Assembly: GCA_022709525.1 (NCBI GenBank)
Contig: JAKLIQ010000008.1
Coordinates: forward strand, 18,917-82,916
Direction: 5' to 3'
Length of the DNA: 64,000 nt
Source: Candidatus Omnitrophota bacterium
GTDB lineage: Bacteria; Omnitrophota; Omnitrophia; Omnitrophales; Aquincolibacteriaceae
Shown: one piece after another, positions 32,241-53,621 of the stretch
Layout of the letters: each line of letters opens with the position of its first letter
Position numbering within the stretch: position 1 is the stretch's first letter
The notes under the pieces: model-generated
Told to the model about the DNA's origin: nothing
The model's input: only the letters and a program-made list of their open reading frames with translations
Database searches by the model: none
Position numbers and translations under genes: made by a program

Positions 32241-32831
32241 CTACATGCTGAGCGATTTTTTTGCTTGTTTGCTCGCTTTTTCGGCTTCTTTTTGTTTCTT
32301 CTTCGCTTCTTCTGCAGCTTTCTTTTTCGCCTTCTCGGCTTCGCGTTGCGCTTTCTTTTTCGCCTCTTCGGCCTCTTTTTGTTTCTTTTTGGCCAATTTT
32401 TCGGCCTCGGCTTTCTGAGCTTTCAGTTTTTTCTCGGATTCAATTTTCTTTTTGGCCTCTTCGGCTTTCTTCTTGGCTTTTTCGGCTTCGCGCTCGGCCT
32501 GCTTTTTGGCTTTCTCCGCTTCGCGTTCCGCCTTTTTCTTGGCTTCTTCGGCCTCTTTTTGTTTCTTTTTCGCTTCTCTTTCGGCCTCTTTCTTCGCCTT
32601 CGCGGCCTCTCGTTCGGCTTTTTCCGCTTCTTTCTTACTTAAACCGGGAGGCATATTCCCTTCCCAGCCTTTTTTCTCGCCCTTTCCCCAGCCTGCGGGA
32701 TTGGTGTTCTCCTCCTCGGCAAAGGCCAAGCTACCGCCTAAACTGAGTCCCAGCACTAACACAAAAACACACATCCGCATAAAGATGTTTGCTTTCATGA
32801 TCTTGCCCTCCTCTCGTTGAATAAAAAACAC
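32241..32831 (-). CDS. Secreted Lys/Glu/Ala-repeat protein, paralogue 1
   Basis: 196 aa with a signal peptide. Conserved head PAGWGKGEKKGWEGNMPPGLSKKEAEK, then about 120 aa of (KKxAEREAEKA) repeats. Confidence 0.55.
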   Translation of the reverse strand: MFFIQREEGKIMKANIFMRMCVFVLVLGLSLGGSLAFAEEENTNPAGWGKGEKKGWEGNMPPGLSKKEAEKAEREAAKAKKEAEREAKKKQKEAEEAKKKAEREAEKAKKQAEREAEKAKKKAEEAKKKIESEKKLKAQKAEAEKLAKKKQKEAEEAKKKAQREAEKAKKKAAEEAKKKQKEAEKASKQAKKSLSM

Positions 32832-32836
32832 TGTGA

Positions 32837-33583
32837 TCAGGACGCGTTCTTCTTCGCTTCTTTTTCCGCGCGCTTTGCTTCGCGCTTCGCCTGTTTTTCA
32901 GCTTTTTTTGCAGCTCTCTTCGCGTCACGTTCCTGCCGCTTGATATCCCGCTTGGCTTTGGCTGCCTGATAATCAGCCTCCGCCTTAGCGCGATCGGCAG
33001 CGCGGTCGGCTTTCAGTTTCGCCAGTCTCTCTTCGTTCTTTTTCCTCTCAATGTCCCGCTCGGCTTTTTTTGCTTCGTATTGGGCCTTTTCTTCGGCTTT
33101 CTTCGCTTCGCGCTCGGCTTTCTTCTTGGCTTTCTTTGCTTCATTTTCTGCTTTCTTTTTGGCCGCCTCCTTTTCATTTTCCGCTTTCTCTTTGGCTTTT
33201 TGAGCTTCCTTTTCGGCCTCTTTTTTAGCCTTCTCCGCTTCCTTTTGCGCTTTCTTCTCGGCTTTCTCGGCTTCTTTTTGCTTTTTTTTCGCTTCTTTCT
33301 CGGCTTCCTTGGCAGCTTTTTCAGCTTTCTTTTGTTCTTTTTTAGAAGCCTTTTCGGCTTTCTTTTGAGCTTTCTTTGCCTCTTTGTCAGCTTTCTTTTG
33401 CGTTTTTTTGGCCTCTTTTTCGCTTAGGCCGGGGGGCACGTTCGTTTCCCAACCTTTTTTCTCGCCTTTTTCCCAACCCGAAGGACTAGTGCCATTTTCT
33501 TCAGCAAAAGCAATGCCTCCGCCTAAACTCAATCCCCAAGCAATTAAAAAAGTGCATACCCATTGGCTCATCTTAGTTTTCAT
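32837..33583 (-). CDS. Secreted Lys/Glu/Ala-repeat protein, paralogue 2
   Basis: 248 aa with a signal peptide and the same head (PSGWEKGEKKGWETNVPPGLSEKEAKK) followed by KAE-type repeats. Tandem duplicate of 32241..32831. Confidence 0.55.
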   Translation of the reverse strand: MKTKMSQWVCTFLIAWGLSLGGGIAFAEENGTSPSGWEKGEKKGWETNVPPGLSEKEAKKTQKKADKEAKKAQKKAEKASKKEQKKAEKAAKEAEKEAKKKQKEAEKAEKKAQKEAEKAKKEAEKEAQKAKEKAENEKEAAKKKAENEAKKAKKKAEREAKKAEEKAQYEAKKAERDIERKKNEERLAKLKADRAADRAKAEADYQAAKAKRDIKRQERDAKRAAKKAEKQAKREAKRAEKEAKKNAS

Positions 33584-49507: not shown

Positions 49508-49822
49508 TTAGAAACGTATGCCATGCTGTTTGAGGAAGGCGTGGTCATCGGCATTAAGCTCACATTTCAATTCGCCAGATTTAAGATATTCGCTCATGGC
49601 ACCGCTTTCAAACATCTCTTCGATCTCGTCGAATTCTTCCGGAGAAAGCGGCGACATATTCAAAAAGAAAATATTCACATCAGGACTTTTGTCCTTCATA
49701 TCCCTAAGGAATTTCATCATCTCAGCGGGACTTTTGCCATCCATCGAATATTGCCCCATGATCTTTTTAAGAAGCAGCATCAGTTGTTTCATATTTTGCT
49801 CGAACTCTTTTTCAAAACCCAT
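49508..49822 (-). CDS. Hypothetical acidic protein (about 104 aa)
   Basis: ORF downstream of trxB. The start is likely MGFEKEFEQ because the track ORF overlaps trxB. No domain recognised. Confidence 0.35.
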   Translation of the reverse strand: MGFEKEFEQNMKQLMLLLKKIMGQYSMDGKSPAEMMKFLRDMKDKSPDVNIFFLNMSPLSPEEFDEIEEMFESGAMSEYLKSGELKCELNADDHAFLKQHGIRF

Positions 49823-49860: not shown

Positions 49861-50802
49861 TCAGTGATGACCTTCCAAATAAGCCTGCGCGGCCAAAGCC
49901 GCGGCGCAACCTTCGCCGCAAGCCGATACAAGCTGACGTACGGCCCCTTCGCGCACTTCGCCGGCCGCAAAAACCCCCGGAACGGAAGCCGCAAGGTTCG
50001 CGTCGGTCACGACATATCCTTTTTCATTGAGTTTTACGAAGCCTCGCGCAAGACCGCTGTTGGGGTCATGCCCGATAAAGATAAACACGCCGTCGACCGG
50101 AACTTTCTGAACGGCGCCTGTTTTGACATTTTTTAAAAGAACATGCGTGACGCTCTTTTCGCCTTCAATTTTATCAACAACCGCATCCCAAATAAAGCTG
50201 ATCTTGGGATTTTTTTTAGCCCGCTCCTGCAGGATCGGACTGGCCCGCAGAGCGTCCCGCCGGTGAACAATCGTCACTTGCTCGGCAAAACGCGTCAGAA
50301 AAAGCCCCTCCTGAAGAGCTGAATCGCCGCCCCCCACCGCGATGATCTTCTTGCCTTTAAAAAAAGCTCCATCGCAGGTCGCGCAATAAGAAACGCCCTT
50401 GCCGGTAAGCTGTTTTTCAAGAGGCACGCCAAGCGTCCGGAAAGAGGCGCCCATGGCCAAAATCACCGCACGGCCCGCATAAGAAGTTCCTGCCGAGCTT
50501 TTGATCTCGAAGCGACCCTCCCTTTTTGAAAGCTCGAGGACTTCCTCATAAATGATCTCGGCTCCGTAGCGTGCCGCCTGGGCTTCCATTTTCTGGGCGA
50601 CTTCGGGCCCCAAAACTCCCTCCGGGAATCCCGGATAATTTTCAACAAGGTCCGTGGAAGCGATCTGCCCTCCCGGAACGAGTTTTTCGAAAAGAACGGT
50701 GGAAAGTTTGGCGCGCGAAGTGTAAAGGGCTGCCGTCAGGCCCGCGCCGCCGCCGCCAATGATCATGACGTCGTAAGTTTTTTTCCCGGAAAGTTCAGAC
50801 AT
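49861..50802 (-). CDS. trxB: Thioredoxin-disulfide reductase
   Basis: FAD motif VMIIGGGGAGLTAALY, redox-active CATC and the NADPH motif. The ATG at 50800-50802 (MSELSGKK) was confirmed in the DNA. Confidence 0.9.
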   Translation of the reverse strand: MSELSGKKTYDVMIIGGGGAGLTAALYTSRAKLSTVLFEKLVPGGQIASTDLVENYPGFPEGVLGPEVAQKMEAQAARYGAEIIYEEVLELSKREGRFEIKSSAGTSYAGRAVILAMGASFRTLGVPLEKQLTGKGVSYCATCDGAFFKGKKIIAVGGGDSALQEGLFLTRFAEQVTIVHRRDALRASPILQERAKKNPKISFIWDAVVDKIEGEKSVTHVLLKNVKTGAVQKVPVDGVFIFIGHDPNSGLARGFVKLNEKGYVVTDANLAASVPGVFAAGEVREGAVRQLVSACGEGCAAALAAQAYLEGHH

Positions 50803-51202
50803 CGTAGACGCCCGCTTTGTCCAACACTTCTTCTTCAGCAAAGACCGGCACTTGAGCGCGTAAAGCGATCGCAACGCTATCGGAGGGACGCGAATCCACA
50901 ACTATCTCCTGCCCCTCCTTACTCAGAAGGTGGATCTTGGCATGGAACGTATTGCTTTCAAGTTTATCTATGACGACTTTCACGATCTTGCCGCCTAATT
51001 CCTGCACGACTTTCAGCATCAAGTCATGGGTCATGGGCCGCGGCGGTTTGACGTTGCCGAGCTTTAATTTGATGGCGTGGATCTCCGGCAATCCGATCAC
51101 GACGGGAAGAAAGCGGTTTCCGGCCTTCTCACGGAAGACGACGAGCTGTTCATGGCGATTTTCATCGACCTTGATCTTGCTCAAAACCAGCTCAATCATC
51201 AA
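50795..51202 (-). CDS. Bifunctional nuclease family protein (DUF151/BFN)
   Basis: 135 aa. VVFREKAGNRFLPVVIGLPEIHAIKLKLGN...PMTHDLM is typical of the BFN domain. Confidence 0.7.
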   Translation of the reverse strand: MMIELVLSKIKVDENRHEQLVVFREKAGNRFLPVVIGLPEIHAIKLKLGNVKPPRPMTHDLMLKVVQELGGKIVKVVIDKLESNTFHAKIHLLSKEGQEIVVDSRPSDSVAIALRAQVPVFAEEEVLDKAGVYDV

Positions 51203-52772
51203 CGGCCTCGGGCTGAGATTGGGAGGCGCGAAGCTTGGTAATATCAGCAGGATGGATTGTTTTCCGGTGCTCCGAAAGAGGGCTTTCGTGTTTGGTCTTT
51301 TCGCTTAAATGGCGTTGCAGCTGCTTTGCTTCGATCACTTCGCGTTCGATCGTTTCCTGCTCGGCCAGCAATTTCCGCATTTCTTCCTCGCGGTCCCGGA
51401 TCTCGGATTCAACCTTCTCTTGTTGCTTGACCACCTGCTTGAGGCGAAGCTCTTTGGCGGCAAGCTGTTCGTGGATCTGGTTCCTTTTCTGAACCGCTTC
51501 CCGTTGATCAAGTTCGGCATGAAGCTCCCGGATCTGTTTGCGGGCATTTTCAAGATCGTGTTCCCGTGCCTCAAGTTGCGCGAGCCGGAGCTGCCAAGAT
51601 TTCTGCTGATCCTCAAAGGTCCCCCGCAAACGCCGCATTTCTTTTTCAAGCTCGGACGCTTTCTGCTCCCACCGCTTGGCCTGCTGGTTCTGGAGTTCTA
51701 ATTCCTGAATCAAGCGAGTCTCGCTTGACTGGATGATCTTTTTGCCTTCTTCAAGATTACGGATCTTGGCTTGAAGCCCTTCGATCAAGGTTTTCTGGCT
51801 GTCCAATTCCCGGCCGAACTGAGCAGACTGGCTTTCCCACTCCCTCCGCGACTGCTCCTGCTCGTCTTTGGCGCGCTGAAGATCGTTTTTCGCGGCATGA
51901 AAACTTTTAAGCAGGGCCTGTTTTTCCTGAAGCAACTCTTTCTGGGACAGGTCCCGATCCTCGATCTGCCTTAAAAGCTCTTCGGTCTTTTGTTCCTGGG
52001 AAGCCAGCTTCTCTTCAAAATATTGGCGTGTCTGGCGGAATTCCTCGCGGAGAAGTTCGTATTTTTCCTCGGTATGGCCGACGAGCGCGTGGAGTTCCTG
52101 CGCTTCTTTTTCTTTTTGTTTTCGCGCGATTTCGCTCGCCTGCGTTGTTTTTTCTTTTTCCAGCGTTTCGGTTTGCGACTTTTCAAGGGCCTTGCGGAGC
52201 TGTCCAAGATCTTCCTTCAAGCCCACATTCTCCTTCAGGAGTTTTTCCCGTTCTTCCTCGAGAATGCTCCGGAAGTGGCGATTGTTCTGATGATTCATAT
52301 GGCTGATACCGTTCTTGACCGGGGACCTGTCGCCGCGCTCCGGCGCAACCCCTTCGGTCTGGACCCATGAGCGGATCTCCTGGATCGCCTCGTTGTGACT
52401 TAATTTTTCAGTTTCATTTTTTTGCGGGGCCTGGGAAGAAGGCGGCGCTTGATGAAGAAACGCAAGATTGGGAGGCGTCGGCCATACGGTCCGGTAACAC
52501 CGGCGTTTAAGAAAATTATCGTTGCTGACAACGATATCGGCCTGGGAAGCTCGGAAGTATTGTTTGACCTGCAGGGCGGTCGCATAAAGAAGATTGTCGA
52601 TCAAGATGATGGGCGTGCTGGCGACAAGATCGAGGGCTTCATCAACGGGAAGGCGGAAAGCTTTGGCGATCTCCCGAGCGGTCTTGTTGCGCTCCAACTC
52701 GCTTTTGAGAGGGTTCAGAACAACGAACCAATCCTGTCCGCTCGGTTGAACCTTTTTAGTGCCAGTCAGCAT
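51192..52772 (-). CDS. Coiled-coil protein with an N-terminal ribosomal L7/L12 C-terminal-domain-like module
   Basis: 526 aa. Residues ~14-82 (DWFVVLNPLKSELERNKTAREIAKAFRLPVDEALDLVASTPIILIDN...ADIVV) align with the L7/L12 CTD ([45 protein letters not shown]...AEVEV). About 400 aa of charged coiled coil follow. Confidence 0.55.
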   Translation of the reverse strand: MLTGTKKVQPSGQDWFVVLNPLKSELERNKTAREIAKAFRLPVDEALDLVASTPIILIDNLLYATALQVKQYFRASQADIVVSNDNFLKRRCYRTVWPTPPNLAFLHQAPPSSQAPQKNETEKLSHNEAIQEIRSWVQTEGVAPERGDRSPVKNGISHMNHQNNRHFRSILEEEREKLLKENVGLKEDLGQLRKALEKSQTETLEKEKTTQASEIARKQKEKEAQELHALVGHTEEKYELLREEFRQTRQYFEEKLASQEQKTEELLRQIEDRDLSQKELLQEKQALLKSFHAAKNDLQRAKDEQEQSRREWESQSAQFGRELDSQKTLIEGLQAKIRNLEEGKKIIQSSETRLIQELELQNQQAKRWEQKASELEKEMRRLRGTFEDQQKSWQLRLAQLEAREHDLENARKQIRELHAELDQREAVQKRNQIHEQLAAKELRLKQVVKQQEKVESEIRDREEEMRKLLAEQETIEREVIEAKQLQRHLSEKTKHESPLSEHRKTIHPADITKLRASQSQPEAVDD

Positions 52773-52835: not shown

Positions 52836-53195
52836 TTAAAGAGTGATCCGCTCGGCGATCTCATGGATCACCGGGATCTCCCACCGCTCCCCCATCAGGA
52901 CCTTCACGATCCCGATGAGCGAAAGGATCCCGAACACCACGAAAGAAAGCGTGAACACAAGATCCCCTAATGCAGGGACGACTTTCAGGATCGCCGCGGC
53001 GAGCTCTAATATGAAAAGCACGAGGGCCTGCTTGCCGTGAAAGATCGCGAACTTATTCCCTTTTTTAAGGGCGAGCGGTACAAAACAAAGAAAGCTTAAA
53101 TAGCCGATCGCCGCAAAGAACTGCGCGTCCTGGATTTCAGGATCTTTCGGCGCCTGGTTTTTTTCCGCAGTATCCATGAATACTCCTTTATCCAA
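52836..53195 (-). CDS. DUF4870-like small membrane protein
   Basis: Two or three TM segments with a FHGKQAL motif. The start is probably at MDTAEKN. Confidence 0.5.
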   Translation of the reverse strand: MDKGVFMDTAEKNQAPKDPEIQDAQFFAAIGYLSFLCFVPLALKKGNKFAIFHGKQALVLFILELAAAILKVVPALGDLVFTLSFVVFGILSLIGIVKVLMGERWEIPVIHEIAERITL

Positions 53196-53279
53196 TGTTC
53201 GGGCTATTATAGAAAGACCCGAGCATGACCGTCAAGGTGCAATCCTTTTAAAATCGCTTCGTTCGTTCACAAATCAACT

Positions 53280-53621
53280 TTATGCGACCTTGGGCTCTTC
53301 TTTATGACAAACTCTCGGGATCGTCCGCTCCATCGGGATGAAAAAAGTCCCGACTTCCGTGACGCCGACCAGCATCCGCCGCAACATGAAAAGGGTCCCT
53401 TTGCCAAAACCGGAAAAAAATCCGGCGCCCCCCTGGTCGCTCATATCGCTGTGGACCGTACATGGGACTTCCGCAAGACTTGTGACCACATTTTCAAGCC
53501 CGCGGCCAAACTTGGTCCCGATACCGTACATATAATCGCCTACGGTTTCCTCTTCGGCGAAAAGAAACGGCGCCGCCGAGATCATCACCAGCGTAAAACA
53601 AAAGATCGCCCTGGAACGCAT
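53280..53621 (-). CDS. Small secreted protein, last gene of the mla operon
   Basis: 113 aa with a signal peptide (MRSRAIFCFTLVMISAAPFLFA). Sits 9 nt downstream of mlaD. No family assigned. Confidence 0.45.
   Translation of the reverse strand: MRSRAIFCFTLVMISAAPFLFAEEETVGDYMYGIGTKFGRGLENVVTSLAEVPCTVHSDMSDQGGAGFFSGFGKGTLFMLRRMLVGVTEVGTFFIPMERTIPRVCHKEEPKVA

Follow-up and report, generated by a model that had tools for sequence, protein, structure and literature searches.

A coiled-coil protein family of Omnitrophota carrying an N-terminal domain homologous to the C-terminal domain of ribosomal protein bL12

In the ribosomal stalk protein bL12 (L7/L12), the C-terminal domain (CTD) is a highly specialized protein-protein interaction module that recruits all translational GTPases (trGTPases) to the ribosome, and to our knowledge its reuse in cellular proteins outside the stalk is almost undocumented, phage proteins being the known precedent. 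What, then, would such a domain be doing at the head of a long coiled-coil protein? The question arises from a 64,000-nucleotide stretch of a Candidatus Omnitrophota genome (assembly GCA_022709525.1, contig JAKLIQ010000008.1, positions 18,917 to 82,916 of the forward strand; hereafter the window, in whose own numbering all positions are given), where the open reading frame (ORF) 51192..52772 on the minus strand encodes a protein of 526 residues. A first-pass annotation made from the letters alone had delimited exactly this frame and had proposed an L7/L12 CTD-like module at residues ~14-82, about 400 residues of coiled coil directly behind it, and a function either as a mimic of the stalk that binds trGTPases or as a tethering protein. 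As far as we know, there are no pure cultures of Omnitrophota, and most of their conserved hypothetical proteins are uncharacterized. The domain as such is well known, while the architecture, the lineage and the operon are undescribed, and a stalk head domain repurposed in a phylum-wide, syntenic and unannotated family came as a real surprise. The gene and its parts, all on the minus strand, are as follows.

51192..52772, minus strand: whole gene for the Omnitrophota-specific 526-residue protein (ORF list; family of 191 or more clusters, cut at 50% identity)
52734..52772, minus strand: residues 1-13, basic N-terminal tail with the consensus MLLGxKKxQ (conservation; predicted local distance difference test score, pLDDT, below 50 at residues 5-10)
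52524..52733, minus strand: residues 14-83, diverged homologue of the bL12 (L7/L12) CTD (profile, hhalign, Pfam, AlphaFold2 (AF2) and Foldseek)
52455..52523, minus strand: residues 84-106, family-specific extension TNDxxxKRKC(Y/F)R(T/A)VWPExPxLSFL (column frequencies; AF2)
52263..52454, minus strand: residues 107-170, variable Pro/Ser/Gln-rich linker of ~64 residues (alignment; heptad score)
51288..52262, minus strand: residues 171-495, heptad coiled coil of ~330 residues, rich in E/K/Q/R/L (heptad score, periodicity)
51297..51575, minus strand: residues 400-492, conserved C-terminal block of the coiled coil, ...QExxExEIRxREExMRKxLAEQExxEKEIIExKQxQRHL (full-length alignment)
51192..51287, minus strand: residues 496-526 and stop codon, variable, partly acidic C-terminal tail (low occupancy, low conservation)

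The start codon is supported by the N-terminal MLLGxKK, which is kept across the alignment of relatives, and the tail formed by residues 1-13 is probably flexible according to the structure prediction. An identical protein is present on the Omnitrophota metagenome-assembled genome (MAG) GCA_035454205.1 and is labeled 'hypothetical protein' in GenBank (HOW88543.1 / HRY85258.1).

Homology of the N-terminal domain to bL12

When searched alone, neither the whole protein nor its first 120 residues matched any Pfam or NCBIfam family at E<=10, and a single-sequence AF2 prediction was uninformative (pLDDT 50). Pairwise BLASTP against E. coli bL12 aligned 58 residues with 33% identity at E=0.001. This stretch keeps the register of the final part of the CTD, and the similarity is suggestive but not decisive. 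The top match of a single-sequence phmmer search of the Protein Data Bank (PDB) was a designed 'CAP repeat' (8vd6, matched over a helix-loop-helix stretch of 30 residues), which we rejected because its score sums five individually insignificant repeats. A word-index search gave seven close relatives, and a profile built from these seven still missed bL12 in the PDB. The bL12 signal emerges at the level of the family; single-sequence searches alone would wrongly refute the finding.

The diversity needed was supplied by an exhaustive HMMER scan over 1.84 billion representative sequences, and the resulting family alignment (A3) comprises 59 sequences with less than 62% pairwise identity. The A3 profile matches 1ctf, the CTD of E. 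coli L7/L12, at E=1.1e-7, with profile positions 10-82 aligned to chain positions 3-73 and thereby to the full CTD; bL12 of Thermotoga, Thermus, Mycobacterium, Deinococcus, Mycoplasma and mitochondria is also matched in the PDB. Aligned by hhalign against a bL12 alignment, for which the homologue search had returned enterobacterial sequences only, A3 yielded a probability of 95.2% (E=2.9e-8) with residues 13-82 placed on the CTD. PF00542, the Pfam family of the bL12 CTD, matches 52 of the 59 relatives at E<=10 and 28 of them at E<=1e-3, with a best value of 1.1e-8, and no other Pfam family recurs among them. Hence, the profile search led neither to an insignificant similarity (E>1) nor to an unrelated family, and automated pipelines would detect PF00542 in the less diverged members only. 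From the opposite direction, when E. coli bL12 was the tblastn query and the retrieved loci were the targets, a family member (locus L036) was recovered at E=3e-4.

Structure prediction agrees with the profiles. AF2 run on A3 without templates reached a pLDDT of 86.5 and returned a beta-alpha-alpha-beta-alpha-beta order (strand 15-19, helices 25-39 and 43-51, strand 55-61, helix 63-74, strand 80-83), in which three helices pack against a three-stranded antiparallel sheet. As the run was template-free and used an alignment of family members only, this fold is independent of bL12 structures. Foldseek of the model against the PDB ranked 1ctf at the top (E=1.5e-4, TM 0.85, rmsd 1.8 A over 69 columns, 23% identity), followed by ten further bL12 chains and by ClpS from rank 12. 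The three sequence motifs of the CTD named in the first-pass annotation are all present and in register with the E. coli protein: W15-F-V-V-L19 with F54-D-V-I-L58, E45-A-L-D-L-V-A-S-T-P54 with E82-A-K-D-L-V-E-S-A-P91, and A78-D-I-V-V82 with A115-E-V-E-V119.

Residues 14-83 are thus confirmed as genuinely homologous to the bL12 CTD, though diverged from it, and by sequence, fold and core the domain belongs to the bL12-CTD superfamily (PF00542 / 'ClpS-like' fold). A chance resemblance, in which the N-terminus would be an unrelated small alpha/beta or helix-turn-helix-like domain with a few bL12-like motifs, could appeal to the empty Pfam and NCBIfam searches of the single protein and to 8vd6 as its best PDB match. 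This explanation is refuted by four largely independent family-level tests that agree with one another (A3 profile against the PDB, hhalign, PF00542, and AF2 with Foldseek), by alignments that span the CTD end to end and by the retained hydrophobic core, and we regard it as negligible. Membership in the ClpS family (PF02617), the N-degron adaptor of ClpAP, was likewise rejected: ClpS shares the superfold and is also a small protein-binding adaptor module, whereas it gives a weaker structural match that ranks below eleven bL12 chains, essentially no sequence signal (PF02617 in one of the 59 relatives, at E=0.076) and no Clp context for the gene in question.

The head surface and the architecture behind it

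For bL12 itself, V66-V68, K70, L80 and E82 are contacts to EF-G G' (PMC5887453), regions 66-70 and 80-85 shift upon trGTPase binding, K95 forms a salt bridge with D63 of uL11, and L58, L94, L106 and L110 make up the hydrophobic core (PMC3505967). The equivalents of the core positions are kept in the 59 relatives: L58 is L/I in 54/59, L94 is L in 51/59, L106 is I/V/L in 55/59 and L110 is F/L in 59/59. Also retained are the equivalents of K65 (K/R in 55/59) and E82 (E/D in 56/59) and, likewise, those of A83, L86, V87 and P91. The V66 and L80 columns, on the other hand, are among the most variable of the domain (entropies of 3.6 and 3.9 bits), the K70 equivalent is basic in just 16/59 relatives and the K81 equivalent is acidic in 42/59. 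At the position of the uL11-contacting K95, Leu is found in 45/59 and I, F or V in the rest, with I58 in the Omnitrophota protein studied here, which carries N29, K30, T31, R33, V43 and E45 at the trGTPase-contact positions. The strongest conservation of the family lies instead in strand beta2 (NTPIILLD) and in an extension that bL12 does not have, both of which exceed the rod. Read from the alignment, the residues that determine the fold are kept, whereas the interaction surface specific to the stalk is mostly lost, so that the head has probably lost the usual binding surface of the bL12 stalk. The family is in this respect a natural experiment that separates fold-determining from function-determining surfaces of bL12.

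Nowhere in the protein is conservation higher than in the extension (residues 84-106), with W97 in 59/59 relatives, C92 and P101 in 56/59 each and K89 in 52/59. It lacks a bL12 counterpart, as both the PDB and the hhalign alignments end at residue 82. AF2 assigns it a pLDDT of 88-95, with a short helix at 86-91 and a strand bridge at 93-94, and it is predicted to pack onto the bL12-like domain. Cys92 (codon 52497-52499, minus strand, within KRKCYRTVWP) is the sole cysteine of the 526-residue protein and is present in 105 of 117 full-length relatives, while the remainder of the protein contains 0.28% Cys. From its conservation a redox-sensitive role would be conceivable; the idea of a redox switch is weakened by the several members in which Tyr replaces this cysteine.

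Behind the extension, the coiled coil proved shorter and more distant than first thought: instead of ~400 residues directly after the domain it spans ~330 (residues ~171-495), and the 23-residue extension and a linker of ~64 residues precede it. The linker is poorly occupied and poorly conserved in the full-length alignment, has prolines at 110, 111, 116, 144 and 151 and a low heptad score, and holds one small conserved helix-like patch at ~124-134, LxxxEA(I/L)xEIR. For the coiled coil the heptad score is 0.62 as opposed to 0.41+-0.03 in shuffled sequences, none of 200 of which reached 0.62; its hydrophobic periodicities are 3.5 and 2.33 residues, E, K, Q, R and L together make up 65% of its composition, and the stretch between 152 and 497 is a proline-free run of 346 residues. 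The final ~95 residues of the coiled coil are well conserved among relatives. This C-terminal block found no specific relative in the PDB (best E=0.08, to unrelated helical proteins), and eight diverse full-length family members carry no further Pfam domain.

Compared with bL12 (PF00542; 1ctf), the protein shares the beta-alpha-alpha-beta-alpha-beta fold, the L58/L94/L106/L110 core and the EAxDLVxSxP helix-5/loop motif, and also the logic of a design that combines an element for dimerization, a hinge that is flexible and a small head that is mobile. The order is inverted, however, with the head at the N-terminus and ~440 residues after it, and the coiled coil of 330 residues takes the place of the 30-residue N-terminal domain (NTD) of bL12. 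The latter, a dimerization and uL10-binding domain (PF16320), has no Pfam match in the Omnitrophota protein, whereas the genuine (enterobacterial) bL12 sequences that we retrieved carry both PF16320 and PF00542. Further differences are the conserved 23-residue extension with its Cys and Trp, the replacement of K95 by Leu and the lack of conservation at V66, K70 and L80 in the family, and the location of the gene outside an rplJL context and within a single phylum; neither rplJ nor rplL occurs in the window. Judged by the NTD, the trGTPase-contact residues and the uL11 contact, all found wanting at the sequence level, and by its gene context, the protein is not a bL12 orthologue.

That a bL12 CTD outside the stalk protein is rare, as had been supposed, is broadly right, although precedents exist. 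Phage proteins of up to 724 residues carry bL12 domains that share 30-40% identity with cellular bL12 and reportedly keep the residues contacting uL11 and EF-G/EF-Tu (PMC6375957), and one cyanobacterial orthocaspase carries a bL12 domain as well (PMC8283722). The phage proteins are the closest precedent for the domain in large polypeptides, as they too hold a bL12 CTD-type domain inside a much larger non-ribosomal chain. They differ in that the Omnitrophota heads are ~23% identical to bL12 and mostly without the contact residues, and in that the Omnitrophota family is encoded on the chromosome, with synteny kept throughout a phylum; no sequence relationship between the two groups was found. 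A tblastn search against 50,697 phage records stayed empty at E<=1, scanning IMG/VR with a pattern gave no confirmed relative, and PADLOC and PHROG searches returned no defense-system or PHROG match.

Distribution and gene neighborhood of the family

Counted in clusters of 50% identity, the HMMER scan recovered at least 191, 138 of them at E<=1e-10. The domain lies at or near the N-terminus in 150/150 matches listed and, with a single exception, begins between residues 1 and 31. Full-length proteins among the matches listed are mostly ~350-950 residues long, with one of 2399, a wide range (350-2399 residues) that arises by expansion of the rod. For the distribution, one genome per GTDB species was scanned with two conserved peptides taken from an eight-sequence subset, A3 being too diverse for this purpose. 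The scan gave 62 species-level loci, of which 38 bear Candidatus Omnitrophota/Omnitrophica in their titles and the other 24 are MAGs without a phylum label; none of the 62 was assigned to another phylum, in a two-peptide scan that would miss distant members elsewhere. We found no description of the family in the searchable literature. Some relatives bear the public names 'chromosome segregation ATPase' or 'EnvC', which are artefacts of the coiled coil, and the domain identified here provides an annotation for hundreds of such misnamed or 'hypothetical' proteins. An identity as SMC/Rad50 or 'chromosome segregation ATPase' was rejected, with NCBIfam matches restricted to the coiled coil and scoring 8-23 bits against cut-offs of 567-1087 (Rad50, 23 versus 1087), and no P-loop Pfam match indicative of an ABC-type ATPase head was obtained for the protein or for eight diverse full-length members.

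Within the family, a tandem second paralogue occurs in five loci. In L031, L039, L048 and L051 it lies upstream of a MamF-like gene, in the order paralogue, MamF-like gene, paralogue and gene for a bifunctional nuclease (BFN), and of the two copies in L051 (220-7419 and 7959-10556) the extra one is the protein of 2399 residues (P0112). The most divergent branch is the P0147 subfamily (ENA ERZ1426824 contig), with ~28% identity, the motif NHDMIKKNC(Y/F)QI(V/L)WP and a stronger bL12 signal (PF00542 E=3.7e-5). Two further, short database proteins, P0007 and P0137, start with the first 40-52 residues of the family, followed by unrelated sequence (in P0007 a fragment of the molybdopterin oxidoreductase PF00384), and most likely stem from chimeric contigs of metagenomes rather than from genuine fusions.

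On the minus strand of the window the genes are ordered riboflavin genes, anti-sigma kinase/STAS, MlaEFD, a small secreted ORF, a MamF/DUF4870-like gene, the gene studied here, BFN/DUF151, TrxB, an ORF for 104 residues (ORF104), DUF547, L21, L27 and Obg. The immediate neighbors are the following.

50795..51199, minus strand: BFN/DUF151 (Cor-like), 134 residues, downstream (PF02577 E=4e-38)
49861..50802, minus strand: thioredoxin reductase, trxB-like, 313 residues (Pyr_redox_2 E=6.6e-48)
52836..53177, minus strand: small MamF/MmsF-like (DUF4870) membrane protein, 113 residues, upstream (PF09685, weak, E=0.0019)
53206..53235, minus strand: sigma-70-like promoter match TTGACG-18-TATAAT (11/12), upstream of the MamF-like gene and the best consensus match of the region

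The co-orientation and overlap with the DUF151 and trxB genes had been correctly recognized. The end of our gene overlaps the ATG of BFN by 8 nt (ATGATTGA), or by 11 nt if an upstream TTG is the start, BFN in turn overlaps trxB by 8 nt (ATGTCTGA), and the MamF-like stop codon lies 63 nt ahead of our ATG. The sigma-70-like site is a candidate operon promoter; the number of such sites is not significantly above that in shuffled sequences, and the consensus may not be that of Omnitrophota.

This order of MamF/DUF4870-like gene, bL12-head coiled-coil gene, BFN/DUF151 and TrxB is kept in more than 50 species. Of the 55 species loci that could be evaluated for BFN, 53 have it directly downstream, most often at a stop-to-stop distance of 397 nt, which corresponds to the 8-nt overlap; TrxB follows BFN in 51/51 evaluable loci and the MamF-like gene is immediately upstream in 53/59. 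In the P0090 lineage (L065 3055-10754; 39% identical) the triad of MamF-like gene, family member and BFN is kept, with TrxB replaced by a flavodoxin-like FMN reductase that is followed by pyruvate:ferredoxin oxidoreductase (PFOR). The conserved theme downstream of BFN hence seems to be a redox enzyme rather than TrxB itself.

Possible function of the protein

Of the two roles initially envisaged, the tethering protein is the one we favor, since it fits an architecture of head, linker and coiled coil; the stalk mimic is neither shown nor favored, most contact positions being lost. Our preferred reading, to which we assign a probability of roughly 50%, is that of an Omnitrophota-specific structural or tethering protein, a coiled-coil dimer bearing two bL12-like heads for capture that have been retargeted away from the ribosomal GTPase center and whose most likely partner is the Cor-like BFN. 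The head would be a duplicated and diverged bL12 CTD stabilized by the family-specific extension (KRKCYRTVWP...), and the flexible linker of ~64 residues would connect it to the ~330-residue coiled coil, which most likely dimerizes. Two mobile heads on the dimer would then capture a partner protein. This arrangement is suggested because it follows the logic of the bL12 dimer, namely a dimerizing module, a flexible hinge and a small head, in reverse order, and the head is probably retargeted since the uL11 contact and most trGTPase contacts are lost while the core is kept. As translational coupling to BFN/DUF151 is conserved, the product of this gene is the best candidate for the partner, and the MamF/DUF4870-like membrane protein could anchor the assembly. 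A flavoenzyme after BFN, be it TrxB or FMN reductase, would fit a redox link. Cor of M. tuberculosis, a DUF151 protein, is a dimer without detectable nuclease activity that affects redox balance (PMC3870250), a redox role that fits the invariable presence of a flavoenzyme downstream of BFN. The four-gene module of MamF-like protein, bL12-head coiled-coil protein, Cor-like DUF151 protein and flavoenzyme could in this way illuminate the molecular role of DUF151/Cor.

Several points weigh against the retargeted tether. Our data show the homology of the domain, its fold, the architecture, the phyletic range and the structure of the operon, whereas we infer from architecture and synteny that the protein dimerizes, which partner it has, that it associates with the membrane and that it is linked to redox; for binding partner, dimerization and membrane association this evidence is indirect. 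Moreover, synteny inside one phylum may stem from common descent instead of a functional link. The P0147 subfamily gene lies between the genes for the Dus tRNA-dihydrouridine synthase and YjeF_N, with neither BFN nor a MamF-like gene beside it, which indicates that the head does not strictly need BFN. The reference for bL12 conservation was the literature together with the E. coli protein rather than a diverse bL12 alignment. Finally, the equivalents of K65 and E82 are conserved family-wide, and the protein studied here keeps R33 (equivalent to K70), V43 (L80) and E45 (E82), which places it somewhat nearer to bL12 than the family as a whole.

These last residues are also what a stalk mimic would build on, in which the head still binds EF-G, EF-Tu, IF2, RF3 or a different GTPase, for instance Obg, and the coiled coil sequesters, localizes or concentrates GTPases away from or near ribosomes. 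The domain is a true bL12-CTD homologue, the phage proteins set an extra-ribosomal precedent in large polypeptides (PMC6375957), and a conserved L21-L27-Obg cluster lies ~3 kb from the gene. This cluster, however, is near-universal in bacteria and is separated from our gene by four others, and the conservation pattern described above, with V66, K70, L80, K81 and K95 variable or replaced and the most conserved columns in strand beta2 and in the non-bL12 extension, speaks against a preserved GTPase-binding surface. Since the uL11 contact and most trGTPase contacts are lost, we do not favor a classical stalk mimic and consider it rather unlikely, even if the residues kept would be compatible with residual GTPase binding by this particular head. 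We judge equally doubtful a cytoskeletal or filament-forming coiled-coil-rich protein similar to crescentin, DivIVA, FilP or Scc, with a mainly mechanical or spatial role in cell shape, division or the positioning of organelles or chromosomes, for which the head would be merely an anchor or cap. The long unbroken heptad coiled coil with its conserved terminal block, the lengths of 350-2399 residues reached by rod expansion, the tandem paralogues in five loci, the small membrane protein encoded upstream and matches below threshold to families of the tropomyosin, EzrA and crescentin types would all suit such a protein, and a long heptad coiled coil whose termini are globular or conserved is indeed shared with DivIVA, crescentin, FilP/Scy, EzrA and the SMC/Rad50 rods. 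Yet the family has neither an ATPase head nor a DivIVA or EzrA domain and no significant match to any of these families, the coiled-coil matches being compositional and under the cut-offs. Its head and extension are more conserved than the rod, and its conserved neighbors are BFN and flavoenzymes, with no division, shape or segregation genes among them.

Far less probable is a ClpS-like adaptor, whose head would recognize N-terminal or other degrons and deliver the substrates to an unfoldase of the Clp/AAA+ type, BFN/DUF151 serving as either co-factor or substrate. Foldseek does recover ClpS with a TM of ~0.75, and plant DUF151-UVR proteins are strongly enriched as CLPC1 interactors (PMC8889267). 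The ClpS matches, however, reach only E>=1.4e-2 at 10-18% identity as compared to 1.5e-4 and 23% for bL12, which the sequence profiles favor as well, the conserved neighborhood contains no Clp genes, and the plant CLPC1 interaction is attributed to UVR-domain proteins, a domain absent here. A more far-reaching version of the tether, which strikes us as improbable if somewhat less so than the ClpS-like adaptor, is a second, non-ribosomal 'stalk': a coiled-coil dimer anchored to membrane or cytoskeleton whose heads recruit a GTPase or a ribosome-associated factor, or a clamp gated by the redox state of Cys92 and controlled by TrxB and the Cor-like protein. If true, this would couple translation or another GTPase-driven process to redox state or cell position in ultra-small cells, and it would be the first cellular case of a stalk head domain reused as a regulated tether.

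Some other features of the window deserve mention. The 104-residue ORF between trxB and the DUF547 gene (49508-49822, minus strand) is conserved and syntenic in nearly all related loci and has no Pfam, PADLOC or PHROG match. Directly after MlaD, a conserved 113-residue ORF (53280-53621, minus strand) has a signal-peptide-like N-terminus and no Pfam match; homologues occur in most related loci, usually near Mla genes, and its product presumably resembles small exosortase-associated secreted proteins. At 32241-33583 (minus strand) lie two tandem paralogues of 196 and 248 residues with signal peptides and an extreme richness in Lys, Glu and Ala. They are built of 33-nt (11-residue) repeats of the AEKEAKKKQKE type, have the N-terminal motif GWxKGEKKGWExNxPPGLSxKEA in common and constitute the strongest compositional anomaly of the window (AT skew -0.43, GC 0.47).

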